A stretch of 63,381 nucleotides of DNA, filler included, from Stramenopiles sp. TOSAG23-2 (Eukaryota), in the NCBI GenBank assembly GCA_900128395.1. It is 7 parts of 7 records of this genome, joined end to end, with 100 filler letters (N's around TTAATTAATTAA, not from the genome) between each part and the next. Parts side by side here need not be neighbours in the genome. Positions count along the whole stretch, not along the records: positions 1 to 27,469 come from LT649417.1; 6 more parts are not named here. The stretch is one strand, 5' to 3'. Position numbers and translations under genes: made by a program. Shown piece after piece: positions 1,657 to 61,807 of this stretch. Within the stretch, counting starts at the first letter, position 1, and each line of letters starts with the position of its first letter. The notes beneath the pieces are model-generated. The model ran no database searches. It saw only the letters and a list, made by a program, of their open reading frames with translations, and was not told the DNA's origin.

Positions 1657-3948
1657 TTAATCTAAACGAATTAACTCAATATCTTTTAACTCATCATCAT
1701 TATTCAACAAATCAGCTATATATTCAGTAAAACGCACAGGTCCGGATAGAATAATACATGCTTTCCCTTTCTTCTTCCCGAGTTCCATATTGTCTTCCTT
1801 TCTACTTAATAAACTATTGAATTTTTCTTTTATAATATTTGTTGTAATTCTTGTACCTTGAATAATTTTGTTTTTATTTGTTAATTTGCGTTTAATTTCG
1901 TGTATCGTGTCATCCTCCATTTCATCCTTATTGCTTTTACTTATAGCATTCTTTCTATCTGCTGCTACAATATATGCATTTGAGATAATATCATTCGATG
2001 CAGTTGTTTGTTTCTTTCTATTTTTCATCTGCGTAGTGCTATTTGTATTTTTATTAGATTGATTCCTACTGCTGAATAATGACGATAACGCTGATGTCGA
2101 ATTCTTATTATCATCATAATCATGTGACAAATGCGTTGGCGGCCGTGGTGTTAAAGTAATAATATAATGCATTTGTAAATACTTTTGACCTTGCGAATTA
2201 CATCTGCCTTCAATTAAATGTTTTTCTAGCAATGGACATTCGAAAATGTCAGTCAACTCTCGTGATTGCCACAGTACATCGGTGTATATATTCGTTTCCA
2301 TCAACATACTTAACATTTGTAAAAATACTACAATGCCAGTACCACCAACTATGTATAAAATGTGATCATTTTCCTCATTTGTTTTTATAATGTTTCGTAA
2401 TTTAGTGGTACCCAAACCTACGTGGGGACCTGATAGACGTAAACGTGATTCACCTATACTTAAGGATGATAAAAATTTAGACATTTCACCATTTGGGTAT
2501 AATCGAATGTAGAATTCAATCAATTTTTTTTTCTCGGCTCCAGAACTACTATTACTTTTACTGTTTCGGCTATTTCGTGATAGCAGCAATTCATTTGCAA
2601 GAGATTCAATCGGTGTATATGGTCTTTCAAATATATCAAACGATTCGCCAGTTGCAAGGAATTTATAATGACATCCTATAAAATCATCAAAATGTCCTAT
2701 ATCTATTTCAAATACAAATTTAACAACAGGTGCTATTGTCAAGTCCATATGTTCCTTATGAACCAATTTTGTAAATGTTATTGTATCCTTTATTTTTTCC
2801 TTTATTGGTACTATACTTTTGTCATTGACATCATTCATGACTATACGACCTCGAACACGCGTTGCCAATAATGTCATTGCAGAGATGGAATGACGATGGG
2901 AAGATTTGATTTTTGATTTACTATTATCATTTTTATTATTATTATTATTATTGTTGTTATTACTGGCGGTGGTAGTGGTGATAGTCATTTCACGATTTGG
3001 TCCTTTATTTTCAATATGATTATTATTTATATCATTTAATGCTTTTATTTCACCACCAATAAATTCTTCTGTTACGTCAAGCCCAATATGAGAACGTAAT
3101 AAATATGCCCCACCAGGATGTACATCAATCCAATCTGAAATATCAATTATAGCATTAGCAACAATAACCCAACGAGATCCGGTAGTAATTTTGCTTCGAA
3201 ATTCATGATGCGAAAACGTTGGTAAATTAAGACGTGTAATTCTATGTTGAAGTTCTTCAAATATATTAATTTTATTTGAAATATTATGAGACAGTTTCCT
3301 CCAACGAAACTCATTATATATAAAAAAAATAATTATAGCCAAAATCCATAAATAGACAACAATTCGCATTCCTATGGTAAACATCATATTTATGCCCATA
3401 ATGCATTGAAATATTCCAAACATTAACAATAAAGGCCCAACAATACGATGACATATTTTCATACGATTGAAGAATATTAATTTTTTCTTTGAATTTTGTG
3501 AATTATGCTGCAAAGCAAAAGCACAAATAAAACCAAGTACAAGTTGAGATCCTGACAATACTAATATTACAATACCTAGAAAGGCATGTGGATTGGACAA
3601 CATTTCAAGAATGCTACGTCGCGATGTTATAAATGTAAACGCTGTGCTAGATACACCAATTACTGTGGATTTTGCTAGTGTTGCATGTAACGTAAGCCAT
3701 CGTGTTTTGTGTCGATAATATTTTACAATGAAAATGGATAATGGTGCAGCAAAAAGCCAAGCATATATCATAATAAAAGAATGTAAATATAATACAAATT
3801 TTCTTGATTCCCAATGTGATTGAATGTCTGTTTTTGTACAATTATTCATTCCCTTTTTTTTTGTGTATATATTTGCTTCTTTCGTTGTTTCGTATGATGA
3901 TGATGGTGGTGATGGTGATGGTGACTTTTGGTTTGATACTTTAGACAA
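1657..3948 (-). CDS. Cytochrome b561 + cytochrome b5 + FAD/NAD(P)H reductase (b5 reductase-like) fusion; start uncertain (first in-frame ATG at 3849)
   Basis: TM region with four His (LHSFIM, WLTLHA, NPHAFLG, CHRIVG). b5 motif DWIDVHPGG...DVTEEF...HS. Reductase motifs RPYTP, GEMSKFL, GGTGI, LSGP. Confidence 0.85.
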   Translation of the reverse strand: MSKVSNQKSPSPSPPSSSYETTKEANIYTKKKGMNNCTKTDIQSHWESRKFVLYLHSFIMIYAWLFAAPLSIFIVKYYRHKTRWLTLHATLAKSTVIGVSSTAFTFITSRRSILEMLSNPHAFLGIVILVLSGSQLVLGFICAFALQHNSQNSKKKLIFFNRMKICHRIVGPLLLMFGIFQCIMGINMMFTIGMRIVVYLWILAIIIFFIYNEFRWRKLSHNISNKINIFEELQHRITRLNLPTFSHHEFRSKITTGSRWVIVANAIIDISDWIDVHPGGAYLLRSHIGLDVTEEFIGGEIKALNDINNNHIENKGPNREMTITTTTASNNNNNNNNNKNDNSKSKIKSSHRHSISAMTLLATRVRGRIVMNDVNDKSIVPIKEKIKDTITFTKLVHKEHMDLTIAPVVKFVFEIDIGHFDDFIGCHYKFLATGESFDIFERPYTPIESLANELLLSRNSRNSKSNSSSGAEKKKLIEFYIRLYPNGEMSKFLSSLSIGESRLRLSGPHVGLGTTKLRNIIKTNEENDHILYIVGGTGIVVFLQMLSMLMETNIYTDVLWQSRELTDIFECPLLEKHLIEGRCNSQGQKYLQMHYIITLTPRPPTHLSHDYDDNKNSTSALSSLFSSRNQSNKNTNSTTQMKNRKKQTTASNDIISNAYIVAADRKNAISKSNKDEMEDDTIHEIKRKLTNKNKIIQGTRITTNIIKEKFNSLLSRKEDNMELGKKKGKACIILSGPVRFTEYIADLLNNDDELKDIELIRLD

Positions 3949-7624: not shown

Positions 7625-8081
7625 ATTTGTGTGTGTCCAAATTTTTAATAAATAATGAATTATAATGTATCGCATCTATGCAATCGTGAAATTGATAACA
7701 ATATTAAAAAATATTATATAATTATATCCAAAAACAAATACAAAACCAATATAAAACATAAAAAAAAAATAGCACAATATGTTTCGGGATTTGCACAAAC
7801 AAATGATGACGAACAAAAAGACATTTTCAACAATGTCACACGTATACTCCAAAAATATTTTTCTCTTGTAAAAATATTTTAAAATAAATATATATATATA
7901 TTTATATATCGTAAATCAAAATGTAATATGATACCATAATAATATGATATCATACTTCGTATCAGTATTATAATTATTTCAAACAACCATCATGTATTAA
8001 ATTAAAAACAATCTAAAATCCCATAGTCGCGTACTAATTAAATAATTATTACGTACGAAGCGTATTAATAATTAAAAAATA

Positions 8082-10839
8082 TTATTCTTCCTTCGATTTT
8101 TTTTTTTTATACAATAATTGATATAACATAAATACTATCCATCCTCCAAATATAATTAAAGGTATCAACAACAATACATTCTTATATAGTGGTACATTAT
8201 AAGTGCATTGAATATCAAATTCAATATCATCACGTGATGAGGTGGAATATTCATCATATAATTGCACAGCCAAATACCCGGGTGCAACACGTAAAATAGG
8301 TTGAACCTGCTTTTCATTGTTGATGTTACAATTCCAATGTGGATGATAATTAACTTTTAAAACAACAAAAATACCATCATCTTTCATTAATTCTTTTTTT
8401 CCTACTTTAACTTTACAACTATATGTATTTGGACTAATAGTTTCCTGTAAAATCTTGCTCTTTCTTTGTACTATTTTGAAACGACTTATTGGTAATTCAC
8501 TTGGTTTTCTATGATCCATTTGGTATAAAGTCAATGGTGGCTTCTTAAATTTTGGTGGTGCTGACATTGTATATTGCCAATCATCATCAACTTTATCAAC
8601 TGAATCAAATCCCCTTCCATAACCGCGTCCTGGCTTTGCATCATGAAAAAGTGGATGCAAACAATTGTTATATTTCATCGACTTTCCATGAGTATGACAC
8701 CTTGTAGTGACAATAAAATAGTTACTACGTTTAACTTTATAAACTTGAAAATGTCGACGATATTTTTTGTTGTTGTTATTATTATTATTTAAGTCTCCTT
8801 CCTCATAAACTTCTATTAAAAAATGCGGTGGGCGGATTTGTTTCGGTAATATAATATATTGAATATTAAATAAATAATAATGATCAATATTGCCATGATC
8901 AAACCATTCTATCCATGAATCAGCTGGTGCCATTGTATGTAATGTTGGCTTTTTTTTTTGTGTTAGAATATGTGAAAAAAAATTAATATATACATATTTA
9001 GTACATTGATCCAAACAATTATATACTTACACCTATCATTGGCCAATCATCTTCCAGCAATTTGGGAAATAGTGTATAAATTGGCCATTGAGTATATCCC
9101 GGCATGCCAGTAAATATACGACCTTTTAAATAACCATCATTTTTCTCTTTCTCCCGATTCAATATAGTTAAAATGGAATTATATTCTTGTTTTGATAATT
9201 GTTCCCAACGTTTCTTTTGTTTATCCAATGTAGCTATATTAAATGAATGTTGCATTTTATCTCTTTCAAAAAGTGAAGGATAAAGCAATGCAAAAATAAT
9301 TACTAAACACAAAGCAAATGTGATAACTCTTGCACTTTTCCTTCTTGTAATGGGCTCGTCTTCTTCATCAGTTTCCAACATGAATTTTTTCCTGTTCTGG
9401 TAAACCTTTTGTAAAATAAAAATATCATTTAAATACTTTGATGAAAAATGAAATAAAAAATCGAAAACAATGCCACCTGTTGTGTGGGGCGTTGCGTATA
9501 TGAAATGAAAGAGCAATGTGTTAGAGGGAGGTCTTTTATACTATTTGTAGGATTATTACGGAAATAGAATTTACTTACATGTACAAATGGCAAATATTTG
9601 CATTGCAGATATAAAACGATGGAAATGTAACGATGAACTAAATGGCAATAATTTTAATACAATTGGATACTGTGCAAAACATGTTGGCCCAGCAAACATT
9701 ATTCCCCAAAACAAGAATGACACGATAATCCATATATATAAAATAACATTTCTAATATCATACTGATATGATGATAATCTTTGCAGTGATATCACATAAA
9801 TGATTGTTTTATATATTGAAATTATAAATCCTACAAAAGTAGTATTTGTAATGATTTTTGATGTAAATCCAAAATCTAATAGGTCACCATCCATAAATTT
9901 AATATAAAACCAAGTCCAACCGACAGAATCAAATTTCCATTTACGATGTTCAATCTCATTAACGACATATCTATTTTTTAAAAATGGTATGACAAAATAC
10001 GATATCATCGATCCAACTAAAACTAAGATCAATAAAAAGCGAAAAATTGATTTTAAAATATTTGTTTGTTTAAACTGGTAAAATATAAATTGAATGCCGT
10101 CCGTAGTAATTCTTGAGTGTAAATAAATGGTCAATAAAAGTACTTCTAAAATGCATAGACTTCCTAAAACCATGTAACCATAAAAAACATTTGACAATAA
10201 TACGGAAGATATTAACATCGATGCCAATATGATATTCTTCCAAGTTTCATTACGATTTTGATGCAACTTGACCATTGCGTTAAAACTAATACCAAGCGCA
10301 GGAAAAAATAAATAAATTGCCAATAATTGGGAAAATAGACCGTGTCCATTATGAATTTGTGAATTGATTCCAATTCCATAACTATATTGTACTCCTTGTT
10401 GCCTATTTTGTGGTGGTGGGCAATCATTAATAATTGGATACAACATTGTAATAAATACAGCTGCTGCGCTGTTGAAACCTAATTTTTTTGACCCATAAAA
10501 TACCATAATTGGCATTGTAGATAATAAAAACAAGATTGCAGTATCAGCATTAATTTTTTCATAAAAACTGTTGCATATGCCAATTATAACATGTGGTAAA
10601 TGTTGATAATGTGACACTAAGGGAAATCCCGTGTTTAATCCGGGCAAAAAGAAATCATAAGGCGATATACCTTTTAAAACATATTTACCAATATATTTAA
10701 TAACATATCGGTGCAATAATAAATCATTGGTTGAAATATTATTTGTTGATTCAATAAATTGTGTAGATAATATGTAAAATAGCCAAATGACTTCGCACGC
10801 AATTATCGCACTACAGCAGTAGTCAATAATACTCTTCAT
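8082..10839 (-). CDS. Polytopic membrane protein, YfhO-like / GT-C glycosyltransferase-like; 3 exons (10839-9579, 9476-9031, 8948-8082)
   Basis: GFPLVSHYQHLPH loop, many TM helices and a YfhO-type C-terminus (VLKVNYHPHW...RVAPGYLAV). Two GT-AG introns join the three track ORFs in frame. Confidence 0.72.
8949..9030 (-). other. Spliceosomal intron (82 nt, phase 0)
   Basis: GTAAGT donor, CTAAC branch point and AAG acceptor; splicing gives ...MIG|PTLHTM in frame. Confidence 0.75.
9477..9578 (-). mobile_element. Introner-like intron, copy C (102 nt)
   Basis: GTAAGTAAATTCTATT...CCCTCTAACACAT...TTCATATACGC...CAACAG, sharing blocks with the introns at 18583 and 19246. Splicing joins the flanking ORFs in frame (CT-C-GIVF). 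Confidence 0.7.
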
Positions 10840-11226
10840 TTATCACTGATAATATTTTCTACGTGTCAGTTTAGAGTGGTTTCTTTGAGAAAGGTTTTGT
10901 CTTTCTTTCTTTTTCCGTATATATCAGGATAATTATATTTCAAAAAAAATTCAAAAGTTAATCTGAAGAATGCGTCGTCGTCGTCTCGCGTCGGTCGTAT
11001 TCTTTTCGTTGTGCTTTTTAATATAATATACCTTAAAATAAAGAAGCGTAGAGTCGTAGAATTTTAATTTGTATTTGCACATTCGTGTGCTTCTTATTAT
11101 ATTATTTTTTTTTCACGCGACACATTACCTATGTGTTGAGGTCGAAAAATTAGAAGTATGATATTGGATATGATATACCGAGAAGTACATACAGTATATC
11201 ATATATATATATAGTTCGTACGTACA

Positions 11227-11823
11227 TTAATAATAATATTTTGCCCGGTACATATAAATGTTTAATAACACTTGTACGTGGTTCGTATTTTTTTTACAAT
11301 TGTGGGATGCCGGGCATTGTTCAACGAATGCTAAATTGACATCATTTTTTTCAATTTCTCCAAATGCCACGCCTTTTATTCCATTACTAGTTGTCACTTG
11401 AAAAAGTTGTTGTGCAGTAAGATGATCATAAACTGTTATCGTTTTTCCGCCATCTGATGCCATTGCACACATTTCGTGTTCTACAAATTGTTGAAATGTT
11501 GCAAATGCGACGTATTTAACCGGCTTTGGTGTTTTGATCACTGGTAAATGAACCATTTTTTTCTTGTTAAATACACCTCCTAGCGTCACCACTTTTCGAT
11601 CGGAAACTTGTTTAAAAATTGAATTTGATTGCGTTCGCTTCAATTTTCTTTTTTTCGTACCATCTAAAGCAACCGTTGTTACAATGCTAGGACGTTTCTT
11701 TTCATGATCTAGTGGTGTATGTTCAATACTAATGCTTTTTCTTCTTTTCACATTCATACCCCCCTCCGATGGACTTTTTACTCCACTATCCACGATATAT
11801 TTATTGTCATTTGAGTTGCTCAT
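11227..11823 (-). CDS. Hypothetical protein, possibly a truncated WD40-like protein
   Basis: 198-aa ATG ORF; ASDGGKTITVYD...IKGVAF resembles one propeller blade. Confidence 0.45.
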   Translation of the reverse strand: MSNSNDNKYIVDSGVKSPSEGGMNVKRRKSISIEHTPLDHEKKRPSIVTTVALDGTKKRKLKRTQSNSIFKQVSDRKVVTLGGVFNKKKMVHLPVIKTPKPVKYVAFATFQQFVEHEMCAMASDGGKTITVYDHLTAQQLFQVTTSNGIKGVAFGEIEKNDVNLAFVEQCPASHNCKKNTNHVQVLLNIYMYRAKYYY

Positions 11824-12210
11824 AATATATATTTCCTCAACATTAATTTGGTCGTATTATTAATGAAAATGGATGATATATTCCTGAAGATGATGTAATA
11901 ATAATAGATAATATATCTAGTAATTTTATACAAATGTGTACATGCATGTATGTCCATTATAATATATATATTTATATAAATATGTGTACGGATATATAAA
12001 TATACCAGTTTATGCCAAAAAAACGAACATATCTTTGCCAGGCTTTTGTAGTGCTGTGTAGTGCTAATTATACTATTATTAGCTATTACTTTATACAGTA
12101 GTATGGGAGAGTTTAGCTTAGTATTCCAATTGGGGTTTTAGTTTAGCAGGTGCTTATAGGGTTAAAAATTATTAAAAAATTTCGATCTAAAAAACCTAGA
12201 AAAATGTTTT

Positions 12211-13446
12211 TTACTTTTTTTTAGTTTGTTGTTGTTGTTGATTGTTATTATTATCTTTTTCTTCAAATTTACCTTCGCTTATCTTCTTTCCATCATCCTC
12301 TACTTCATGATCATCATGTTCAGTTTCATTTTTCTTGTTAATAATTTCTTGTTGTTGCAATTGCAATTTTTGTAAACGTTGATTGGAACGTTTCATAATT
12401 TCCTCCCTTTTTGTTTGAAAATTAGTACGTGCAGTTTGTTGTTGAATGTTTAATTTCAAAACAGTTTGATTAAAATTTGTCCTATTAATAATCGTTTCAG
12501 ACGTTGTAGTAGAAGAGGAAGAATTATTTGATGTATTAGTACTACTATTCGCTATCTTTCTTGAACTACCTTTTTGAACAATCTTGATTTGTTCCGTATT
12601 TTTATTTCCTTGATTTAAAATTGCACGTTCATATGCACATCCAACACATAAATCTAATGTTTTTTCTTTACCATCATTCAATAAAACAACTTGAAATCTT
12701 GTGCCATATATAATACAACGACCACATTTTGTACCATCACATTGAAATAATGCATCCTCATCATCTTCTTCTTCTTCCTCCTCCTCCTCTTCTTCTTCTC
12801 CCCCAACATCACCAATTAATGTTGATACATCAATATCCATACGACTACCATCCAATGATAGTAATTTTGGGAAATATTTTCGAACATTGGCACGATAACT
12901 AGTATTATTTTCCAGACTACTACATGGATTACCATATAAATTTAAAATCATAAGTTTTTTAGTTGGCAAATTTGAATAATCGGCATTTTCTACTGAAATA
13001 TTATTTAATGATAAATCTAGCACTTTCAAGTTTCTTAAATGATTTAAATTTTCTATTTTCCTAATATAATTATCGCTTAGATTTAACCATGTTAAGTTCA
13101 TATGAAAATCTAAATTTTCAATTTTTTGAATATAATTTCCTTGTAAATATATACGCTCGACTTTATCAACAAGCTCTAAACCATCAATTTCAGGAATCAT
13201 CTTATTATCTAACCGAACAACTTTTGCTTTTAATAAGGCATCCATCACCTGATCTTCCGATTTATTTCCTACATTATTCACACCAAGCACACCAATTTTT
13301 AACAACTTGGCATTGATTCTTTGCCTATTCGTATTGTTGTCCTCGCGTGGATGACGTAATAAATATAAATTAGATGCAGAGTTATCCACTTCTTTTTGTA
13401 TTGGTGGGGCTGTTACAAAATCTGTTTTTTCCTCTTGTGATGTCAT
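12211..13446 (-). CDS. SDS22-type leucine-rich repeat protein (LRRC46-like) with a degenerate ZZ-like Cys cluster and coiled coil
   Basis: YLQGNYIQKIENL repeats, LRRcap (GNPC...YR..V...FPKLLSLDG), CDG..C...DLCVGC. Confidence 0.78.
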   Translation of the reverse strand: MTSQEEKTDFVTAPPIQKEVDNSASNLYLLRHPREDNNTNRQRINAKLLKIGVLGVNNVGNKSEDQVMDALLKAKVVRLDNKMIPEIDGLELVDKVERIYLQGNYIQKIENLDFHMNLTWLNLSDNYIRKIENLNHLRNLKVLDLSLNNISVENADYSNLPTKKLMILNLYGNPCSSLENNTSYRANVRKYFPKLLSLDGSRMDIDVSTLIGDVGGEEEEEEEEEEEDDEDALFQCDGTKCGRCIIYGTRFQVVLLNDGKEKTLDLCVGCAYERAILNQGNKNTEQIKIVQKGSSRKIANSSTNTSNNSSSSTTTSETIINRTNFNQTVLKLNIQQQTARTNFQTKREEIMKRSNQRLQKLQLQQQEIINKKNETEHDDHEVEDDGKKISEGKFEEKDNNNNQQQQQTKKK

Positions 13447-13776
13447 TTGTCTTTTCTTTTTGGTATGGTGGCACTCTTGTTGTAATTAGTTAATATTATT
13501 ATATACAATCTATGATATGAATCACGATAGCAGCAGATTGTTTGACCACACACACACATACACATATTACCTCTGTATAACTGTGTAACTTAAACTGGAA
13601 ATAGAAAGAAGAAAAAGGCCTGGAAAGCATGCGAAAGTCAGAAGAAGTAATCAAAAAAAAAAAATAACGTTTTGTTGGTATTTGGTACAAAAATAGGTAC
13701 TTGGTAATATACTAAGGATCTAACCCTATAAAGGAACATGAAAATTAAAAATTTTAACCCCGGTAGAACTACAGTA

Positions 13777-14316
13777 TCATCTGGTGTAAGAGGGTAAATA
13801 CTGTTCTGCTGTTACTGTTTCATCGAGATTAATTTCAATCTTAAATTCTGGCAAGTCCACGAACTTAGCCATCTTAACAGCCACTGCAAGTAAATATGGT
13901 TTTAACTTTTCTTCTGCCATATCCCTTATTGCTTCATATTCATCATTCTCTTGAACTTCCTTCTTTACACTTTCAATGTGTTCGACCGCCTTTGCTAAGA
14001 ACTTCCCGGATATCTTATTTGCCTCATACAGAATTGTAATTGCTGTTGCCTGTTCAATATTGTCAATATGCATATATAAGTTTTGGTGCCTTGTACGTAA
14101 AAGTGTATGGCAAAAGTTCAGCAATTCTTGCTTCGCTTGGTTGTTGGCTTCGCTATCTAGCTCAGCTATCGCTGGTATGCTGTCCATATTAATATATGGT
14201 GGTTCCACTGGTATACCAAAAGTCTGGAATGATATAGACTGTTCGTATAAAGTTTTCCACCTTTCGTGTGGAGACGGTCTGCTGCGTTGCATATTATTAC
14301 TAAATAAATTTTCCAT
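13777..14316 (-). CDS. Hypothetical protein
   Basis: 179-aa ATG ORF with globular-like composition; no recognised motif. Confidence 0.4.
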   Translation of the reverse strand: MENLFSNNMQRSRPSPHERWKTLYEQSISFQTFGIPVEPPYINMDSIPAIAELDSEANNQAKQELLNFCHTLLRTRHQNLYMHIDNIEQATAITILYEANKISGKFLAKAVEHIESVKKEVQENDEYEAIRDMAEEKLKPYLLAVAVKMAKFVDLPEFKIEINLDETVTAEQYLPSYTR

Positions 14317-14388
14317 GGTTTTGCTAAAATTTTAAATTATGTCTCGGATGGCAGTGCGGATGATTTTAGAAGAAAACATGGTGATGCG

Positions 14389-15042
14389 GTGGAGGACGCT
14401 CACAACATGTTGGGGATAGAGAAGTTTGTGAAGGAGCAGGATGGTAGTAATTATGGTGTCGATAAGTGTGTTAGTAAAAGTAAAAGTAATGCTAATATAT
14501 CTACAAATAATTCTATCAAAAATAATAGTAATAATTGGGTGCAATATGGTGATAATAATAATAGTGATAATACTAAGGGTATTAGTGGTGATAAGAATAT
14601 TAATAATATCAAGGATGGGAGAAGGAGTAGTGGTAAGATGAAAGGTCATCAGCATAATGAGAATTCGAAGCGCAAAGTAAATGAGGCTGGTAGTATGATT
14701 GAAGAAAATGCAGGTGAAACTTTGAAAGGTAGTACGACCAATAGTTTCAATAATACTAAAAAAGTAAGCCATATTTCGTATGAGGAGATGGATGGTAGCA
14801 GGGAGGATGCTGATATTAATAATAATAATACGGGCAGAAAGGAATTGAGGGAGGAGGAAGACGATGATAGCACTGAAAATAAGGGAGGTAATGCCCCTTG
14901 TCCTCCAACTCCAAAAAGCAATAATAAAGTAAATGAAATGTTAGATGCCATTAAAGGAATCGAGAGGGAAAATAATAATAATAATAATAAAAATAGATTT
15001 AGTGAGCTAGGGAAATCAGGGATTTTCTTTTTGGGGAACTAG
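14389..15042 (+). CDS. Low-complexity ORF fragment without a clear start codon
   Basis: Purine-rich open frame (N/K/E/S rich) lying head-to-head with the previous ORF. Confidence 0.3.
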   Translation: MEDAHNMLGIEKFVKEQDGSNYGVDKCVSKSKSNANISTNNSIKNNSNNWVQYGDNNNSDNTKGISGDKNINNIKDGRRSSGKMKGHQHNENSKRKVNEAGSMIEENAGETLKGSTTNSFNNTKKVSHISYEEMDGSREDADINNNNTGRKELREEEDDDSTENKGGNAPCPPTPKSNNKVNEMLDAIKGIERENNNNNNKNRFSELGKSGIFFLGN

Positions 15043-15473
15043 TTGAGAATTGGATTCTCAATTATTTTATGCTGGAGTGTGTATGTATAAAACTTTTTTT
15101 TAAAGTACTTAAATCTATTTAAACGTAACGAGAAGTTACTGTACCTAATTGGATTGCCAGTCCAAGATTAGTAGGACCATAGCATAGTGATATACCCATG
15201 CTATTCCTATGCTATATACCTTAAATAACCTTACCTGCTAAAACAAAAAAAACAACAACTCAGAGAGAACAACTCAAGGTGCCGCCAAGCAACAAAAAAA
15301 GGGAGGAACAGCACAAAAAAACAACAAAAAAGTTCATCTCTCAATTGATATATTGATATACATGACACAATCATTCACGATGAAAACATACATATTGCTC
15401 TTTTCATTCATAGGTAAATAGATATATATATAGAGAGAGAGAGAGAAAGAAAGAACTAGTTAGATAAAAAGCG

Positions 15474-17000
15474 ATGTTGAGAAAATACACGCCGAAATAT
15501 ACGAATACATTTCGTTTCTTTGTCTCCACGCACGCATCCCCATTTTTGACATACCAATTTTTATTGGGTGTATTACTATCCTGTATATATATATTTGCTA
15601 ATAATAATGTTGCCTTCGCTATTAAACGATTGCAATGTCCAAATCAATGTGGTAATAGTTTGGACAATATGACAACTACGCCTGGTGTAAAACGTGGTGT
15701 ATGTGTTGATGGTCTTTGTCATTGTTACACTGGTTTTTCTGGCGTTGATTGTTCAGAGGGTCACGGGCCTAAAAATAGACATACATTTCCTGTTAAAGAT
15801 AACGCAGTATTAAAAATTTTAGAAGAGGATGATACTACGTGTGACTCCACGACATGTTTTTCCCTATGTTCGTATGGTGGATCTTGTACATCTAAATTTA
15901 CATGTAAATGTTTCAATAAATGGGGTAAAGGCCCAGCAGATGTATTATCCAAAGAAAAAGATGATAAAAAAAACGAGACAAATACAACCACTAGTAGCGA
16001 TCCGACGAAAATTAAAGTATTTTATCGTAAACCACTTGTACCGAAGGAACGTATATATTTATTATCAGTCATGCGAAGTTTAGGAGTACCAAATCCAGGT
16101 GGTGATCCATGTAGAAATCAATGGAGAAATCCACGTGGATTTTTAATGGTCAGTTGTAACCCGGAAGGGCATGTAGTTGGTGTTGATTTTGGTAGAATGA
16201 ATTTACGTGGAACCATTTCCCCATCTATTGGTGGTTTAAAACATTTACGTGATATAGCGATGAATAATAATTTGATACGTGGTCATATTCCATCGCAAAT
16301 TGGTCAATTGCGTGAATTAGAAATGTTATTATTGTACAAAAATAATCTTGTCGGCCATATACCTGATTTGTCAAAAACGCGATTAATTAATTTAGTTTTG
16401 TATGGTAATTTTTTAACGGGTGGAATTCCATATTCACTTTCATTTTTGTTTCAAACATTATTGATGATTGACGTGTCGTTTAATAAATTAGATGGTGTGA
16501 TTGCTAAAAATATATGGAGAATGGAAAGATTAGATACTTTTTATGTGAATCATAATCATTTACATGGTGTAATACCAAAAGGTGTTAATCAATGGAGTCA
16601 TATTAAAAACATGCGATATGAAGAAAATAATTTCGATAATCAAGTCAAAAATGTTGGTAATGCAGAAGTATGGTCTGATCAAACACATTTAGATCGTACG
16701 GAAGAATGGGGAGAGGAATGGAAAAATGGCTTGGTATATGATCAACGTAATCGTCAAAGAATATTTGAAGAAATTGCAAAGAAGAAAGAAAAAGAAAAAA
16801 AAGAAGTAAAAGAGAAATTAGAAAAAGCTGCAGGTGTTGCGGCTGCAAAAAAAGGTGCTGAATGGCAAAAGGCAATGGTTAAAGAACCGGAGAAGAAAGA
16901 TGAAGAAGCTAAAGGAGGAGGAGGAGGAGGAGAAGCTGCACCTGCAGCAGGTATGAAGATAACAGATAAGCAACCAAGTGATACAGACGTAATCGAGTAA
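15474..17000 (+). CDS. Secreted or membrane-anchored EGF-like + plant-type LRR protein
   Basis: N-terminal hydrophobic segment; EGF motif GVCVDGLCHCYTGFSGVDC; LRRs of type NNLIRGHIPSQIGQLRELEML; charged tail. Confidence 0.8.
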   Translation: MLRKYTPKYTNTFRFFVSTHASPFLTYQFLLGVLLSCIYIFANNNVAFAIKRLQCPNQCGNSLDNMTTTPGVKRGVCVDGLCHCYTGFSGVDCSEGHGPKNRHTFPVKDNAVLKILEEDDTTCDSTTCFSLCSYGGSCTSKFTCKCFNKWGKGPADVLSKEKDDKKNETNTTTSSDPTKIKVFYRKPLVPKERIYLLSVMRSLGVPNPGGDPCRNQWRNPRGFLMVSCNPEGHVVGVDFGRMNLRGTISPSIGGLKHLRDIAMNNNLIRGHIPSQIGQLRELEMLLLYKNNLVGHIPDLSKTRLINLVLYGNFLTGGIPYSLSFLFQTLLMIDVSFNKLDGVIAKNIWRMERLDTFYVNHNHLHGVIPKGVNQWSHIKNMRYEENNFDNQVKNVGNAEVWSDQTHLDRTEEWGEEWKNGLVYDQRNRQRIFEEIAKKKEKEKKEVKEKLEKAAGVAAAKKGAEWQKAMVKEPEKKDEEAKGGGGGGEAAPAAGMKITDKQPSDTDVIE

Positions 17001-17322
17001 AAGGAAAAACACACAAATAGTATTATATAAAATTATTTGTTATCATATGATATCATTACGAATCGTATCAATAAAGTTGTGTTTTTATATTTTTTCTATT
17101 TTTCTAAATGATTCGAGTAAAAGGAAAAATACTCGTACACTCTAAATATTATTACGTTTATGAAATTATTTTTTTTATTGTTGTATAAAATTGTGTGTTT
17201 TTCATTTTTTTAAAATTATTTTTTATTACGCGAATACGAACTTTCGTATTATGACTTATAAAAATTATTGTGTTTCATATTTGATGATATTTTCTATTTT
17301 TCTATAAATATATGCATAATGC

Positions 17323-17943
17323 TCACTCACTAACCGCCGATCGCTTTTTTATATCAATTAACTTTGAATCGATATCATGCATCATTGTTTTCATATTATT
17401 TAATAATGATATATATTCATTTAAATCTTCACTAGCTTCTTTATATAGAGCTTGACTTTCTTCATTTTGATGTCGTAGTTGTGTTGACATTTGTCGCATT
17501 CTAGCAGTTATATCTATTTGATTATTTTCAATTTGTTCCAAGTCTTTTTTATTCACAAGGGCATGTCCTCCAAATAAATCTATAATTTTGACAATAGCAG
17601 CAGAGGGTGGTATTTCTTTTTTAGGTAGGGATTTTTTTACATTTGATTCTGTTTTGGTGGTTTGTATATCTAATGATGGCAATGGTAAAGTTGGGGGTAA
17701 AGCAGATGGCAATGGTAATGGATTTTCTTCATCATCATCATCAACTTCTTCCTCCTCACCATCTTCTTCTTTATCTTGATTATCAATATTTTCAATAGTA
17801 TTATTATTATTATCATCATCACCTTCCTCCTCATTATCGTCTGTCGTTAAATAATGTTGCATCAACGCTTCCATCCTTGCGCGCAATTGTGGATCTACTT
17901 CCACGTCGTCCATCTCTCCTTCACTATCATTAGTTGAATTCAT
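17323..17943 (-). CDS. KxDL-domain (KXD1/BORC subunit-like) coiled-coil protein
   Basis: C-terminal LVN..DL..I...Q...R.......L...N..S...MK pattern after an acidic N-terminus. The ATG at 17943 is preferred over the track start. Confidence 0.55.
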   Translation of the reverse strand: MNSTNDSEGEMDDVEVDPQLRARMEALMQHYLTTDDNEEEGDDDNNNNTIENIDNQDKEEDGEEEEVDDDDEENPLPLPSALPPTLPLPSLDIQTTKTESNVKKSLPKKEIPPSAAIVKIIDLFGGHALVNKKDLEQIENNQIDITARMRQMSTQLRHQNEESQALYKEASEDLNEYISLLNNMKTMMHDIDSKLIDIKKRSAVSE

Positions 17944-18305
17944 CTTTATGTCTGTATATATATATATTACAGCTAAGCTGTAATATATATATATATATTG
18001 CAGACATCTTTCTATCAATATTTATTTTAATTATGATGAAGGAATAGTTCTTCTTCTTTTTTCGAAATACAAAGCAACTGCCATACATTATTATTATTAT
18101 TATTATATTACCACCAGGTGGTATACAAAAAGAAATATATGAATAATGGATAGATAGCTGGATAGGACAGATAGAAGAATATAAATCATTAAACATCTTG
18201 GATATATTTATATATATATAGAGAGAGATTATTATAAAGTAGTGCTTTAGATTCTAACCCCTTTTGTCTTCACATTTTTTTTTTGTTTTATATAATCTAA
18301 TTAAT

Positions 18306-20237
18306 ATGTTGGAAACACCAAAGCAAAAGATTAAGATGGAAAATACAAGACGAAAGGAGGTGGAAGATAAAGAAAAAAAGGAGGAAGATGATATTTATAG
18401 AAGTATATCTCCACCAAATACATATGAAAAAATGTTAAAAAAACGTGCGGCAAGAACATCCACTTTTTACTTTTTAGTCATGGCACAAATATTAGTTTAT
18501 GCAGAAGCTGGTGCCGTCCCGGCATTACTACCAAATTTAACGAACTCTTTTAATTTGTCATATTCAATGCAAGGATTTTTAGGTAAGTAAATTCTATTCC
18601 CCTAAACCTGAAAAAAGAGAGACCCTCTAACACATCATCACTAATTCATACGCTTCGCTCCACAGGTGGAATAGTTTATATTGGAATTTCAATTGGTGCG
18701 CCATTGGCTTCTTCATTTTTCCAAACAAATGCAGCAAAAACTGTTTTAATGGCAGCCTTACTTATCAATGGAATCTTTGTATTATTTTTTGCATTACCAC
18801 CTGAAAATTGGAGTTATAGTTTATTAGCATGTCGTTTTATGATGGGAATGTCACAATCCTTTCTTGCAATTTTTACACCGGTATGGGTAGATGTTTTTGC
18901 TACTAGAAGTCAACAAACGCAATGGTTCAGTTGGATTCAGGCATCAACACCAGTTGGTATCATGTTTGGGTATTTATTAGGATTTATAGCAAATGCATTG
19001 AAATCATCGAATGCGAATAATGAAGAATGTTTTGGCGATCGCATTGATTGTTGGAGATTGCCATTTATTGCGCAAGCGATTTTAACAATCCCGTTATGTG
19101 TTCAATTAGCATTCATTTCGAAAAGTAATTTAAATATTAATGGAATACGACGTGCTAATACTCGTGGTCCATCTCTAGGTGACAATGATTTTGCAAAAGC
19201 TATGGATTATAGTGAAGAAGGTATTACAAATGAAGGTTTATCACGGTAAGTAAATTCTATTCCCCCTAAACCTAAAAAAAGAGACACCCTCTAACACATC
19301 ATACTCATTCATATACGCTACACTCAACAGGGTACGTGCTGATTCTTCGTTTTTGTATGGTGCAGCAGCTGCAATGCAACGGACATGGTCACAAACATTT
19401 ACTGCTATCTGTGATATATTATTAACAGGTTCATTTACAATTACGATTCTTGTATTATCTAGTTTATATTTTGTAGTTACATCCGTCCAATTTTGGGCTA
19501 CGGATTATTTAATAAATGGTCCACAGAGATATCCAGTGCATACGGTCATGTTGTGTTTCATTGTAACATCTGCCACTGGGCCAATTTTTGGTGTTCTATT
19601 CGGTGGATGGGCAGTAGATAGAATCGGTGGATATCGTTCATCACCAGAACAAAAATTAAGTAGTGTTAGTTTAGTTACAGGTTTTGCTGTAATATCAAAT
19701 ATATTTGCATTTTCAGCTACGTTTTGGCCAGCTGGAGGTATGTGGTTTGTTATGGGCTGCATTTGGTTTTTATTATTTTTTGGCGGTTCATGTTTACCAG
19801 CTTTAACTGGTATATTCATTGATGCTGTACCTAGGCGCGACAAAGCATTAGGATCATCGATGTCACAAATGGCTTTTAATTTCCTCGGGTATTTCATGTC
19901 TCCAGTATTATCAGGGGAATTGATGGCAACTTTTTCGAAAAGTTTCAAGGAATGTGAAGAATATAAAATCCCAGGTACATGCCCCGAAGCATTGGAATGG
20001 GGATTTCGTGCTAGTTTATTCGGTTCTGCAGTTGCATTGCTTTTTGTCATTTTTTTATGGTGGCATATTTTGTTACAAACAAAATGTTGGAAACATTTTA
20101 AAAGTAGAAATGATAGTGCGACTGAAAATTTGCTAAGTGGAAATACGCCACGTAAAAATAATTATAGCATTTTGGATCGTAGTGTAAATAGTGATGGTGG
20201 TGAGGAAGATGATCATCCTGCTGATGATATCTTTTAG
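18306..20237 (+). CDS. Spinster-like MFS transporter; 3 exons (18306-18582, 18666-19245, 19331-20237)
   Basis: Spliced product reads QGFLGGIVYIG, RFMMG...PVWVD, WRLPF, QFWATDY, TGPIFGVLFGG; about 12 TM helices. Confidence 0.88.
18583..18665 (+). mobile_element. Introner-like intron, copy A (83 nt)
   Basis: GT-AG intron whose removal restores the frame; nearly identical to 19246-19330. Confidence 0.8.
19246..19330 (+). mobile_element. Introner-like intron, copy B (85 nt)
   Basis: GT-AG intron whose removal restores the frame; about 10 differences from copy A by manual alignment. Confidence 0.8.
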
Positions 20238-20451
20238 AATATATATTTATATTATGATACTTTTTGTGTTTTTGTTTATTGATATGTACGAGAGTATAAT
20301 ATGATACGTCGTATATCGTTTTGCACCGCGAGCACCTTGTTGTTAATGTGTGTAAAATGTAGCACAATATAATTACGTACAAACGTTTAACATTTTATTT
20401 TTTAAAAATTTAATTTAAATAAACACATAACCAGAGACACAATTTACTTCT

Positions 20452-21471
20452 TCACACCTTCGCCATAAAATTTTGTTGAACCCAGCGCTGATTTGGAATA
20501 ACTGGTAAATTCGTTTGCATTATTTGATCATTCCGGCGATTTAACATTGCAACACGTGGTGAATTTCCACCTTTCGTAACATATTCTGGTCGCATCGCAG
20601 AGCTTTCCTTACTCCTTCTTGATGGACGACTACGTGGACTTCTACGTTTATTATTGCTTGGTGGCATTGGTTTCATAATTTTCAACTTTCTGTTTCTACG
20701 TTTATATGCATTGCTAACTTTAAATTTACTATTATAATATTGTGGTTTGCTAGATGTGTCCGTCCACACTTGGTTTGATGAGCGTAAAACTTGTGTCCAA
20801 TCCCGAGGACTACCTAATTTAATACTAGTTAATGGTGTCTCACTATCCCTTCGAGGTACATATTTTTTTTTACCATACTGCGTCGTTACCTGGCGTAATC
20901 CAGCACGTAGTCGCCTACCTTTCGTTGGTTCTGAATGTGGATTTATTTTTTTTTGACCTAATGATTTTGCTAATAACATTTCTAACTTCCTACGTTGCTT
21001 TGGTGGCATTTTTGGTGTAATTAATGAATTTCTTACATCGCCGTTTGCAGAAATGATATCATTTAATACATCATCGTTTGCGTTATTTTGATTAGATGTT
21101 TCAGGCATTTCTTGTTTTCTCAATTCTTCTTCTTCTTCTTCTTTCCTTTTTAAATCATTTGAACGCTTCCGTTCAATTGCTAATAAACGTTCAATCTTTT
21201 GTTTTTCTTCTTTAGCTTTTTTCCGATTTTCACGCACTTTTATTGGCGATGGCGGATTTGGATCTGTTACTTCAACTCTTGATCCTTTTATACACGTCTC
21301 CCGTCGTAATCCAGTTGCACCTAACATGCGTTTTGGTTTGCTACCTCTTGATTTTGGTCGTTTCTCAAAGTAACTCTCCCCGGTATAATCTTGATGTATA
21401 TTGCTAATAAATTCAATCAAATCAATATCTCCACTTTGATCGTCATCAAATTTGGTGAAAATTTTATCTAC
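20452..21471 (-). CDS. EF-hand protein with a basic disordered C-terminus (3' exon; 5' part unresolved)
   Basis: EF-hand loop FDDDQSGDIDLIEF; CAG acceptor at 21472. Confidence 0.6.
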   Translation of the reverse strand, partial: VDKIFTKFDDDQSGDIDLIEFISNIHQDYTGESYFEKRPKSRGSKPKRMLGATGLRRETCIKGSRVEVTDPNPPSPIKVRENRKKAKEEKQKIERLLAIERKRSNDLKRKEEEEEELRKQEMPETSNQNNANDDVLNDIISANGDVRNSLITPKMPPKQRRKLEMLLAKSLGQKKINPHSEPTKGRRLRAGLRQVTTQYGKKKYVPRRDSETPLTSIKLGSPRDWTQVLRSSNQVWTDTSSKPQYYNSKFKVSNAYKRRNRKLKIMKPMPPSNNKRRSPRSRPSRRSKESSAMRPEYVTKGGNSPRVAMLNRRNDQIMQTNLPVIPNQRWVQQNFMAKV

Positions 21472-22368
21472 CTGAGTGCAAGAATTTTTTTTTGTTCTAG
21501 AAAAATACGCGTGAAACGATTTTGATCGATTTCCAAAAGACAAAAGATCAATCGCTTATATGCCTATCAAATGAGCAATTATTTATACTTGAAAGGGGAC
21601 GACATTAGAATATACCTGATCTCAAACACCAAATCTCAACAAAAATCCTTAATCCACTGAAGGAAATCATCTAAAGGAAAGCTACAGTACTGTATAAGCT
21701 AGAAAGCTATAGAAAGCCAGGATAAGGAAGTTTATATGAGTTAAAAATGTTTGAAATGATGTTGTGAGACATAATGCAAATTTTATATATCTGATGAAAT
21801 TTCTCAATTTTTGTACCCATTTTGGCGGAACTTTTAAAAATGAAAATAAAATTGGCAAAAATATTCGTGTTTGAGGTGTTATAGAAATGTAGTATAAAGT
21901 TGGTAGTCTAATTTACATAATTTTGTTAGAGTACTTAAAACTATAGTATAGAGATTTTTTGTTATTTTCTATAGTAATGATAATTGTCCCTATGAAGTTT
22001 TTTTAATATATGGAAATAGCATGTAGAAATTAGCATGGACAGATGCCTTTCAACATTTTACACTTGAAAATTGTGTTTTTCTGCCATGTTTTCTGTTTTT
22101 CATTTCCTATTATATTTATACTTAATATAGTACTTTTCATATACTCAATAGATTTGTAGTGTTTGATATATTTGATAGGCCAAATTAGGTATTTTTTGTA
22201 CTTGGGAGAAGGGCATATTTCTTCTTTATTATTCACTATTCACTCGGATATTTATAACAAATTCTTATAGGAGCTTTTTAGATTTCATACTTACTAGTGA
22301 TAATAATACTTTATCACCAATTAGCACTAAATAGGCTTGATAATTTTTTCAATAGTAAACAGTTATAG

Positions 22369-27469: not shown

Positions 27470-27569
27470 NNNNNNNNNNNNNNNNNNNNNNNNNNNNNNN
27501 NNNNNNNNNNNNNTTAATTAATTAANNNNNNNNNNNNNNNNNNNNNNNNNNNNNNNNNNNNNNNNNNNN
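27470..27569. other. Artificial contig spacer
   Basis: N44-TTAATTAATTAA-N44, with stops in all six frames. Confidence 0.97.
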
Positions 27570-51872: not shown

Positions 51873-53370
51873 ATGAAATTAATCACACTGATTACAATAG
51901 TTCTTGCTACTTCAGCATTAACTGTTGTAGTAGAAGGTAAAAAAACAAAATGGCATCAGTTAAAATCATATAATTTTAAACAATATCAACAAGAATTTAA
52001 TAAAGTATATGAAAGTGAAACAGAAAAAATATTCCGTAAACATATATTCCAACAACGTTTGAAAATTATCATTGCTCATAATGATGATTCATCACAAACA
52101 TACAAACGAGGCGTGAATCATTTTACTGATCATACACCAGAGGAATTAAAACAATCACGTGGTTTGCATAAAGGATTATTATATCAAGGACATCAAGAGA
52201 GAAGGAAATTACAATCCATGAAAGTAATAAATTCTACAAACTCATTGCCAGATTCAGTTGATTGGAGAACTAAAAATGTTCTAACACCAATTAAAAATCA
52301 AGGTGAATGTGGATCGTGCTGGACATTTGCCTCTACTGAAACGTTAGAATCACATACTGCTATCAAAACAGGCATTTTACAAGAGTTAAGTGAACAATTT
52401 ATTTTAGGTAAGTACATTTGTTAAGATATATATATATATCACAGTTTCCTCTGTTTGGATGCTTTTTTCCCCTTCCCTGATACAATTGTTTCCAATGCGC
52501 ATACTATATATATATATCAATAAGGGTTATATTTCCCCATGTAAATATAAGCCAATAATTAATATGCAAGACAAAAGACTCTGATGATCAACACTTTAAA
52601 GGGATACTTAAGATGTGTCAATCATCTTTTTTATTATTGGATAGTGTTGAAACATATATTTTATAAATAAAAAAACTACAACTGATTTAAAAACCGCCTT
52701 ACTATATAAAATAAATGAAGCCGTTTTCTAACAATGTACACATTGTATTTTAGACTGCACACCAAATCCAAAACAATGTGGAGGTACAGGCGGTTGTGCA
52801 GGCGGTACTGCAGAATTAGCATATACACGATTAAAGGAACTTGGTGGTATGCCATCTGAATATACTTATCCATACATTAGTGGGACTGGTAAAGCAGGCA
52901 CATGTCATGGTGTTCCTTTAAAACCAGCAACCCCTCATACTGGAGTACCAATGGCCTCAGCAACATTAAAAGGCCACGTGTCAATTACATCAAACTCATA
53001 TTCTGCTGTTATGGATGGTATTGCAAATATTGGCCCATTAGCTGTATCGGTAGATGCTGGTGCTTGGCACGATTATGAAACTGGAGTATTCTCTGGTGGA
53101 AATCAAACCTCACCAACATTGGATCATCTTGTACAACTTGTTGGGTATGGTACAGATAAAGAATTAGGTGACTACTGGATCATACGAAATAGCTGGACAC
53201 CATTATGGGGAGAGAAAGGCTTTATGCTTTTGAAGCGATTCACTGATGGAGATCATTGTGGAATTGATGTAAATCCACTTGATGGCAATGGATGTAAAGG
53301 CGGCCCACCAACAGTTAAAGTATGTGGTCAAAATGGAGTATTATATGATGCCGTATATCCATTGGTTTAA
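51873..53370 (+). CDS. Papain-family (C1A) cathepsin L-like cysteine protease; exons 51873-52407 and 52754-53370
   Basis: Signal peptide, I29 prodomain (GVNHFTD), QGECGSCW, DH and NSW motifs. GT-AG intron 52408-52753 restores ILDC. Confidence 0.93.
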
Positions 53371-54996: not shown

Positions 54997-55096
54997 NNNN
55001 NNNNNNNNNNNNNNNNNNNNNNNNNNNNNNNNNNNNNNNNTTAATTAATTAANNNNNNNNNNNNNNNNNNNNNNNNNNNNNNNNNNNNNNNNNNNN
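54997..55096. other. Artificial contig spacer
   Basis: N44-TTAATTAATTAA-N44. Confidence 0.97.
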
Positions 55097-55134
55097 GATC
55101 TACACTCTTTCCCGACACGACGCTCTTCCGATCT
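55097..55134 (+). other. Illumina TruSeq adapter contamination
   Basis: GATCTACACTCTTTCCCGACACGACGCTCTTCCGATCT, one mismatch to the universal adapter; translates as [11 protein letters not shown] on the minus strand. Confidence 0.97.
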
Positions 55135-56675
<1,541 letters not shown>

Positions 56676-56775
56676 NNNNNNNNNNNNNNNNNNNNNNNNN
56701 NNNNNNNNNNNNNNNNNNNTTAATTAATTAANNNNNNNNNNNNNNNNNNNNNNNNNNNNNNNNNNNNNNNNNNNN
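56676..56775. other. Artificial contig spacer
   Basis: N44-TTAATTAATTAA-N44. Confidence 0.97.
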
Positions 56776-57401: not shown

Positions 57402-58097
57402 ACTTTAAAAAAAAAGGAAAGCAAAAAATTAAGGAAAACGTTACAAATGTATATAGAGCGTATGGAATTAATCAAAGCGTTATTGCCTTCACTTGAAACA
57501 TCGAATAATGTACGTCAATTAGTCTCCCTTGAAAAACAACCTTCCACAGAAAATGTCGAAAAAGAAAAATTAAAACAACTGAAAGAAGATAGTATTAAGT
57601 TAAAAGCGTTAGAAAAGCTTGCTAGAGAAGATTTTCTTTGCCCAATTTCATGTATGTTAACCAAAGAATAACAAAAAACCATTTCCGCAATATATTTCGC
57701 TAACATTTTTATATTTATTATCACCCTCATTCATCATCATACATATAATCTTTATATTTTATTTAAATATTATCATATCAATATGATAATATATTTATTT
57801 AAATATATATATTGACGTATAATATATTTTATATTTAAAAATATAAATAAAATAATAATAGATGATATTATGGTAGATCCTGTTGTTGCAAATGATGGTT
57901 ATACATATGATCGAAAAAATATTGAAGAATGGTGGCAAAAATCAGATTTATCACCAATGACTGGTTTACCAATAGAATCTAAATCATTAATTCCAAATCA
58001 TACTTTAAAAAGTGCAATATCCAGTTGGAATGAGACAATGGGATTTCAAGATAAAGAAGGAGCAGAAGAAGATGAAGAAGAAGATGCATCATCATAG
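57102..58097 (+). CDS. MIT-domain + U-box E3 ubiquitin ligase; exons 57102-57651 and 57862-58097
   Basis: MIT-like KAVEYD...AL.FY...Y.ERME.IK. The spliced U-box reads FLCPISYDIMVDPV...GYTYDR..I..W..SPMT..L.PN. Confidence 0.85.
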
Positions 58098-58353: not shown

Positions 58354-58453
58354 NNNNNNNNNNNNNNNNNNNNNNNNNNNNNNNNNNNNNNNNNNNNTTA
58401 ATTAATTAANNNNNNNNNNNNNNNNNNNNNNNNNNNNNNNNNNNNNNNNNNNN
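58354..58453. other. Artificial contig spacer
   Basis: N44-TTAATTAATTAA-N44. Confidence 0.97.
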
Positions 58454-60030: not shown

Positions 60031-60130
60031 NNNNNNNNNNNNNNNNNNNNNNNNNNNNNNNNNNNNNNNNNNNNTTAATTAATTAANNNNNNNNNNNNNN
60101 NNNNNNNNNNNNNNNNNNNNNNNNNNNNNN
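60031..60130. other. Artificial contig spacer
   Basis: N44-TTAATTAATTAA-N44. Confidence 0.97.
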
Positions 60131-61707: not shown

Positions 61708-61807
61708 NNNNNNNNNNNNNNNNNNNNNNNNNNNNNNNNNNNNNNNNNNNNTTAATTAATTAANNNNNNNNNNNNNNNNNNNNNNNNNNNNNNNNNNNNN
61801 NNNNNNN
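61708..61807. other. Artificial contig spacer
   Basis: N44-TTAATTAATTAA-N44. Confidence 0.97.

Follow-up and report, generated by a model that had tools for sequence, protein, structure and literature searches.

Is the minus-strand intron at positions 9477–9578 of a 63,381-nucleotide stretch of DNA from Stramenopiles sp. TOSAG23-2 (assembly GCA_900128395.1; this whole stretch is called the window below) a copy of the same element as two introns in a gene 9 kb away, and, if so, how did that element spread? To our knowledge, bursts of intron gain have no known source other than introners, which are intron-generating repeats, and the origin of new spliceosomal introns has long been an open question. 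We find that this intron, termed copy C here, very probably belongs to a dispersed introner family in the nuclear genome of an AT-rich, uncultured marine protist, together with copies A and B in a gene for a major facilitator superfamily (MFS) transporter. The initial annotation had described copy C as a third and more diverged copy that shares four blocks in the same order with the two MFS introns, and it had proposed dispersal by transposition rather than duplication within a gene, with copies of different ages.

The blocks behind that proposal are mostly present as described. The 16-mer GTAAGTAAATTCTATT is exact in the three introns, at 9563–9578 (−), 18583–18598 (+) and 19246–19261 (+), and the 13-mer CCCTCTAACACAT is also exact in copies C, A and B. 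The two remaining blocks are less uniform: TTCATATACGC is exact in copy C and in the second MFS intron, but the first MFS intron has a form that is 2 nucleotides (nt) shorter, and the terminal CAACAG of copy C and the second MFS intron is replaced by CCACAG in the first. Throughout the 63-kb window, GTAAGTAAATTCTATT was observed 3 times against an expectation of 0.15, and none of 100 dinucleotide shuffles reached 3. Because both the 16-mer and the 13-mer are common to copies A, B and C, chance does not explain them. The 5′ decamer GTAAGTAAAT, with 1 mismatch allowed, occurs 11 times in the window against 11.4 expected and is thus not enriched; it is therefore the extended blocks that carry the signal, rather than the splice core. 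The exons that flank the three copies are mutually dissimilar in sequence.

The boundaries proposed for copy C proved exact. On the minus strand, positions 9578–9477 form a GT..AG intron with GTAAGT at its start and CAACAG at its end, the removal of which joins exons 10839–9579 and 9476–9031 in frame (phase 1); when the second intron (9030–8949) is also removed, the resulting three-exon reading of the host gene contains zero stops. Exon 1 matched no family in Pfam, and its protein is 40% identical over 97% of its length to the homologue P0001, with an alignment that ends at most 2 residues from the exon end. The C-terminal half of exon 2 aligns with residues 571–629 of P0001. An orthologous copy C is carried by locus L007, from a strain that is 98.4% identical. 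As for the MFS gene, its exon 2 matches Pfam MFS_1 (2.1e-13), and the ortholog of copy B is L012:2304-2388, where the 16-mer is altered.

To look beyond the window, we scanned metagenomes with a pattern consisting of the 16-mer followed, 10–40 nt further on, by the core of the branch-point block. This two-block pattern matched 31 marine metagenome contigs, all of which (31/31) contain a full-length alignable element of ~80 nt with differing flanks. None of 2.9 million viral contigs matched the same pattern, nor did any sequence of the prokaryote genome collection, so the metagenome matches are not due to chance. Together with the three window copies they amount to 34 copies at 26 distinct sites, with L007 as the orthologue of the copy C locus and L012 as that of the A/B locus (strains 96.7–99.1% identical to the window). 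A profile built from the 26 sites returned 48 matches at E<1e-3 in ~200 kb, corresponding to 36 unique sites with E-values from 1e-12 to 1e-21; 33 of these, all those beyond copies A, B and C, are on other contigs and in unrelated genes. The host genes encode, among others, MFS, Fe-ADH, desaturase, sulfatase, ZIP, ABC, SulP, RPE65, TPR, RCC1 and LRR proteins, and 18 of the 22 that were tested contain Pfam families, all of different kinds. Several family copies in one gene are common; the LRR gene of L005, for example, has four within 2 kb (L005:350-2335 (+)). Dispersal, as opposed to duplication within a gene, is borne out by the 36 distinct sites, since the genes that hold them are unrelated.

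Membership of the window copies was assessed with a leave-out profile made from 23 sites on other contigs, from which the window copies and their orthologues were excluded. It gave copy C 39.4 bits (E 2.8e-11 in the window), copy A 69.2 bits and copy B 55.3 bits, and the maximum among 1000 shuffles of copy C with the core splice sites held fixed was 5.7 bits. The other window introns (8949–9030, 52408–52753 and 57652–57861) had no match to this profile and, as had been suggested, stand outside the family. Different ages also fit, as copy C is 77.5% identical to the consensus compared with 93.8% and 95% for the MFS copies. In the DNA runs X3 and X5, the summed contig depth over copy A was 1010.7 (vs ~12 nearby) and 409.8 (vs ~8), respectively. 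The loose contig ends before 18583 are mutually discordant, as other insertion sites would give. This 50–80-fold excess over neighbouring single-copy sequence is not a copy number, but the depth shows that many near-identical copies of the family are present in the same X3 and X5 samples.

By their reading frames, the copies look like introns. Excision of the segment from GT to AG fuses extended open frames, read in the same direction as the element, for all 34 pattern-found copies (26 unique sites), the longest joined frames having 758 and 867 codons. All three phases are seen (8/5/13 at the 26 sites), and a uniform distribution was not rejected (p 0.15). Frames are likewise restored at 8 of the 10 profile-only sites; the other two are a copy cut by a contig end and a weak match. 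Altogether, 34 of the 36 sites are sense-oriented within open reading frames (ORFs) and the remaining 2 are not judgeable, so that antisense or intergenic copies number 0 among the 34 judgeable sites, with ~20% of the DNA examined lying outside ORFs of at least 100 codons. At the copy in locus L020, the intron-less homologue P0005 is colinear across the exon junction. From the reading frames and from this colinearity, we infer that the copies are actually spliced.

The element is short and plain. Its length is 74–105 nt (median ~84) and its composition is A 36%, C 29%, T 27% and G 8%. Similarity among copies begins with the G of GTAAGT and ends with CAG. A strong 5′ splice site, in which GTAAGT is followed by ~10 family-specific bases, is part of the element itself, as are a TCTAAC branch point located 35–45 nt from the element end and a 3′ splice site, which follows a C/A-rich tail (also described as pyrimidine/A-rich) and ends in CAG. 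Given this anatomy, a sense-oriented copy within an exon can be removed by splicing and leave the gene unharmed, and with age copies decay until they resemble ordinary introns. RNAalifold on 30 aligned copies found 0 conserved pairs and no end-to-end pairing, and with minimum free energies of −1.7 to −2.9 kcal/mol and z-scores of −0.8 to +1.1 relative to shuffles the element is unstructured. The 30 copies are 73.8–98.6% identical to the consensus (mean pairwise identity 82%), and copy C is among the most diverged. That the 16-mer hardly varies is in part due to how the search was made, as profile-only copies differ from it by one or two changes.

Two copies have damaged 5′ ends, namely L004:1145-1244 with its L022 orthologue and the second site of L025, L026 and L030. 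Judging from the reading frame, these copies appear to be spliced from an upstream GTGAGT, giving introns of 100 nt and 230 nt, and copies that have lost their 5′ splice site in this way show how family members can be converted into ordinary introns. In a minus-strand gene of L005, a 93-nt intron (start ~1055 in reverse coordinates) has several short blocks in common with copy C and, by these blocks, looks like a decayed relative of it. The family comprises ~3 of the 6–7 introns recognisable in the window. GTAAGT, often as GTAAGTAA or GTAAGTTA, and TCTAAC recur in introns outside the family (8949–9030, 52408–52753, and in L006, L016 and L024), where a yeast-like strict branch point, (T/C)TCTAAC, lies 13–25 nt from the 3′ splice site in addition to GTAAGT; these signals make up a splice code that is strong and general, in a genome poor in introns.

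Such a code gives some purchase to the idea that the blocks are merely the extended splice signals of this organism and that common descent of the three introns is not required, since GTAAGT and TCTAAC recur in the non-family introns of the window and of the other loci. The remaining blocks, however, are family-specific by profile: non-family introns are unmatched where copies A, B and C score 39–69 bits, the copies align over their full length, including stretches without a known role in splicing, and the bare 5′ decamer is not enriched in the window. We therefore consider this explanation very improbable, and the suggestion that the motifs might be a general splice signal holds for the two core motifs only. 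We judge it just as improbable that the window copies arose locally, through duplication or gene conversion confined to a single stretch of 27 kb, rather than by dispersal across the genome. Copies A and B do share a gene, copy C is only 9 kb off and genes with several copies are common, but 33 more sites lie elsewhere in unrelated genes, and the flanking exons of A, B and C bear no likeness to each other. An artefact of assembly or concatenation, in which the assembler put in a contaminating short sequence, deserves even less credence: the window does consist of joined contigs, and an adapter-like string adjoins one spacer, but all three copies lie within the first contig (1–27469), far from the spacers, the same sites are filled in independent assemblies (L007, L012, X3#17 and X5#26), and reading frames are preserved.

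Several observations weigh against a mobile, spliced family and have to be set beside the evidence above. Homologue P0001 is poorly conserved directly past the copy C exon junction. The RNA contigs over 8000–20500 (X15 and X16) neither bridge one of the three introns nor show a splice joint, which makes these contigs uninformative on splicing. Intron-less alleles were not found in the X3 and X5 DNA contigs or among the sites present in at least two strains; every such site is filled, namely copy B (L012), the second site of L004/L022, the second site of L025, L026 and L030, and copy C (X3#17 and X5#26). There is thus no sign of current or recent mobility, as judged from strains that are only 1–3% diverged, between which presence or absence is a weak test of mobility. 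The 30 aligned copies all differ from one another, the top pairwise identity being 95%. Of the 36 sites, 26 were found by the exact 5′ block and branch-point pattern, and the sample is accordingly biased to intact, spliceable copies. Finally, the exclusively sense orientation is a weak argument. Reverse splicing was first argued for the Micromonas introners from their distribution in sense and within genes, as given in the accessible text of PMC3879977, and because these elements were later reinterpreted as DNA transposons with target-site duplications (TSDs) and terminal inverted repeats (TIRs), according to the available sections of PMC11282704, that argument has been overturned for them.

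How the copies spread can be approached through their flanks and termini. At the 26 sites, a search for TSDs of 2–4 nt at offsets of −6 to +6 (5′) and −8 to +6 (3′) gave matches at about the expected number. The 30 aligned copies show no TIRs, and copies folded singly have energies equal to or higher than those of shuffles. The exon flanks of the 26 sites are without an AG|G proto-splice preference; the sole flank preference is for G or T as the first downstream base (22/26 sites), the last upstream base being T10 G7 A6 C3 and the first downstream base T12 G10 A3 C1. Transposition as named in the initial annotation therefore stands in a broad sense only, as neither the hallmarks of a DNA transposon nor presence/absence differences between strains were found.

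The mechanism that we prefer, tentatively and short of calling it probable, is intron transposition at the RNA level. Reverse splicing would place an excised intron in another transcript or in DNA, a reverse transcriptase would then copy it, and recombination would fix the copy. Such a route would account for similarity limits that coincide exactly with GT and AG, for the lack of target duplication, and for the sense orientation in coding regions of all judgeable copies. The features of reverse splicing that are seen (GT/AG-bounded similarity, no target duplication, sense orientation only) are necessary, not sufficient, for it, and overall RNA-mediated spread fits the signature somewhat better than a DNA transposon resembling a miniature inverted-repeat transposable element. 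It appears rather unlikely, though worth stating, that the family multiplies through the spliceosome itself without a transposase. A copy has also entered the virus-type primase/helicase module of L020.

A substantial if doubtful competitor is that the same family spread at the DNA level as an unclassified non-autonomous transposon without detectable target duplication (blunt, Helitron-like, Crypton-like or other), the survivors being found only in sense and within genes because there they are spliced out. Precedent speaks for it, as in the accessible parts of PMC12130899, the largest survey, most classified introner families are DNA transposons, with ~72% of families unclassifiable, and the family table has a "direct insertion" class, which we take to mean an element that carries both splice sites. 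The Micromonas case, as reported in the accessible portion of PMC11282704, indicates that a sense-only distribution can mislead. The L020 copy, in a virus-type gene on GC-rich DNA, would also be reachable by any DNA-level mobile element. On the other side, there are no TSDs of 2–4 nt at the 26 sites, no inverted termini and no fold, and none of the 34 judgeable copies is in the ~20% of DNA outside long ORFs. If neutral intergenic copies made up one third of survivors, the latter would have a probability of (2/3)^34, or ~1e-6, a rough figure that ignores faster decay or deletion of unselected copies. Helitrons insert between A and T, have 5′ TC and 3′ CTRR ends and a 3′ hairpin, and produce no TSD. 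We rejected a Helitron-derived introner, because the flanking bases differ from an A|T target, the ends are GTAAGT and CAG on one strand and there is no hairpin; only the absence of a TSD fits.

The GC content of L020:1-3362 is 56.5%, compared with 29–36% in all other loci, and the family copy there interrupts a helicase gene that adjoins a minus-strand ORF (Table 1). Language-model features and a predicted structure suggest, as a lead only, that this ORF is similar to the AEP primase that giant viruses and polinton-like viruses have. No relatives of the L020 helicase were found among viral contigs. There are two readings of L020: viral DNA that became part of the same host's genome, or a different genome to which the family has spread; if it is not integrated host DNA, it would be a possible vehicle for introns between hosts.

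Table 1. Positions of the family introns, their blocks and the genes that carry them; positions without a locus prefix refer to the window.
Feature	Position	Strand	Remarks
Copy C, introner-family intron, phase 1	9477..9578	−	102 nt; frame restored on removal; 39.4 bits (E 2.8e-11) with the leave-out profile
5′ block of copy C	9563..9578	−	5′ splice site plus 10 family-specific bases; exact 16-mer
Branch-point block of copy C	9516..9528	−	holds TCTAAC; exact 13-mer common to the three window copies
Exon 1, copy C host gene	9579..10839	−	conserved multi-pass membrane protein
Exon 2, copy C host gene	9031..9476	−	in frame once copy C is removed
Exon 3, copy C host gene	8085..8948	−	preceded by an ordinary non-family 82-nt intron, 8949–9030
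MFS transporter gene with copies A and B	18258..20237	+	three exons; first ATG near 18306; one open frame after both removals
Copy A, family intron, phase 1	18583..18665	+	83 nt; MFS transporter gene; profile 69.2 bits; ortholog in L012
Copy B, family intron, phase 2	19246..19330	+	85 nt; same MFS gene; profile 55.3 bits
L020 family copy	L020:2937-3011		75 nt; interrupts helicase gene; closest in form to copy A
P-loop/DUF5906-type helicase	L020:1897-2934 + 3013-3360		weak match to phage primase family; relative carries DUF5906
AEP-primase-like ORF	L020:1022-1816	−	adjoins helicase

Further features of the window were noted alongside the introns. It consists of at least seven contigs, separated by spacers at 27470–27569, 54997–55096, 56676–56775, 58354–58453, 60031–60130 and 61708–61807, each with a 12-base linker that has stops in all frames between two runs of 44 N; the last five pieces are ~1.58 kb each. 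The contig at 55097–56675, which opens with an Illumina-adapter-like string directly after the spacer, codes for the 298 N-terminal residues of plastid CP43 (psbC). Solved relatives of this fragment have E-values down to 1e-176, and 3jcu and 5xnl, which we take to be plant entries, are among the best. This contig is probably prey, contaminant or plastid DNA from outside the AT-rich nuclear genome. The sole Rfam match in the window, to IsrR at 55395–55581, was discarded as an antisense image of the psbC fragment, and the window contains no tRNAs. The nearest Atlas cluster to the CDPK encoded in the window is commonest in diatoms, a weak lead to the stramenopiles.

A non-coding stretch of 430 nt at 21776–22204 is 94.9% identical to L029:1919-2347, the two loci being otherwise unrelated. 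We rejected L029 as an orthologous locus for presence or absence of introns, since the match is a non-coding repeat present in both loci; from this similarity, the stretch can be regarded as a second dispersed repeat, and no direct or inverted repeats were found inside it. At 14255–14671 and 17591–18007, contig depth is 5–10 times that of neighbouring bins in all four runs. Both segments are low-complexity coding sequence rich in N, D and E, and the excess probably comes from cross-mapping of simple repeats.

Most well-studied introner families are DNA transposons with target duplications, and families without such marks are recorded as having an unknown mechanism. Introners are already known as a kind, and none seems to have been described in the present lineage; we found no literature that links introners to MAST-4 or similar uncultured protists. 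With its ~32% GC and low intron density, the window resembles the single-cell assemblies of MAST-4A, for which the accessible text of PMC5269757 gives 33.9% GC and 0.56 introns per gene, although this is a resemblance only. A small and clean family that lives in an intron-poor, compact genome and is itself abundant in ocean metagenomes offers a good natural case for distinguishing RNA-mediated from DNA-mediated intron gain, and the L020 copy, given its virus-type gene, is relevant to the recent proposal of viruses as carriers of introners from host to host.

Among known systems, the introner elements of Micromonas (classes A–D) are similar in that, as the accessible text of PMC3879977 describes them, they are similar introns that number from hundreds to thousands in a marine picoeukaryote, on the genes' sense strand only and at unique positions. 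They differ in the available sections of PMC11282704 by a 3-nt TSD, a TIR and the carriage of one splice site, the other being co-opted from the duplication, whereas in the present family both splice sites and the branch point are inside the element and neither TSD nor TIR was found; this contrast is drawn from descriptions, not from sequences. Another stramenopile, Aureococcus anophagefferens, also hosts a short intron-generating repeat, according to the accessible parts of PMC12130899 and PMC11282704, but its introners "co-opt 5' carry 3'" in the former and thus take one splice site from the target, while the present family carries both. Closer by description is family fam1 of Parmales sp. 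scaly parma (Gozashti et al. 2025), which in the accessible part of PMC12130899 is the dominant family of a marine stramenopile, with 1,655 copies, nearly all GT..AG, an unclassified mechanism and "direct insertion". Its length range of 102–2081 and a 12-nt TIR from one tool set it apart in the same partial source, the comparison being by description only, and a search of 12 of the 14 supplement files of PMC12130899 did not find the motifs of the present family. The introner-like elements of fungi (Dothideomycetes) have a donor, an acceptor and a branch point of canonical form, are found in genes unrelated to each other and decay to ordinary-looking introns, as the accessible text of PMC3609843 reports. 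In that same text they are long and structured, whereas the present elements are unstructured and measure 74–105 nt next to nearby introns of 82–346 nt. Set beside all of these, the family has an unusually minimal architecture: at ~80 nt, the element is essentially a minimal optimal intron.

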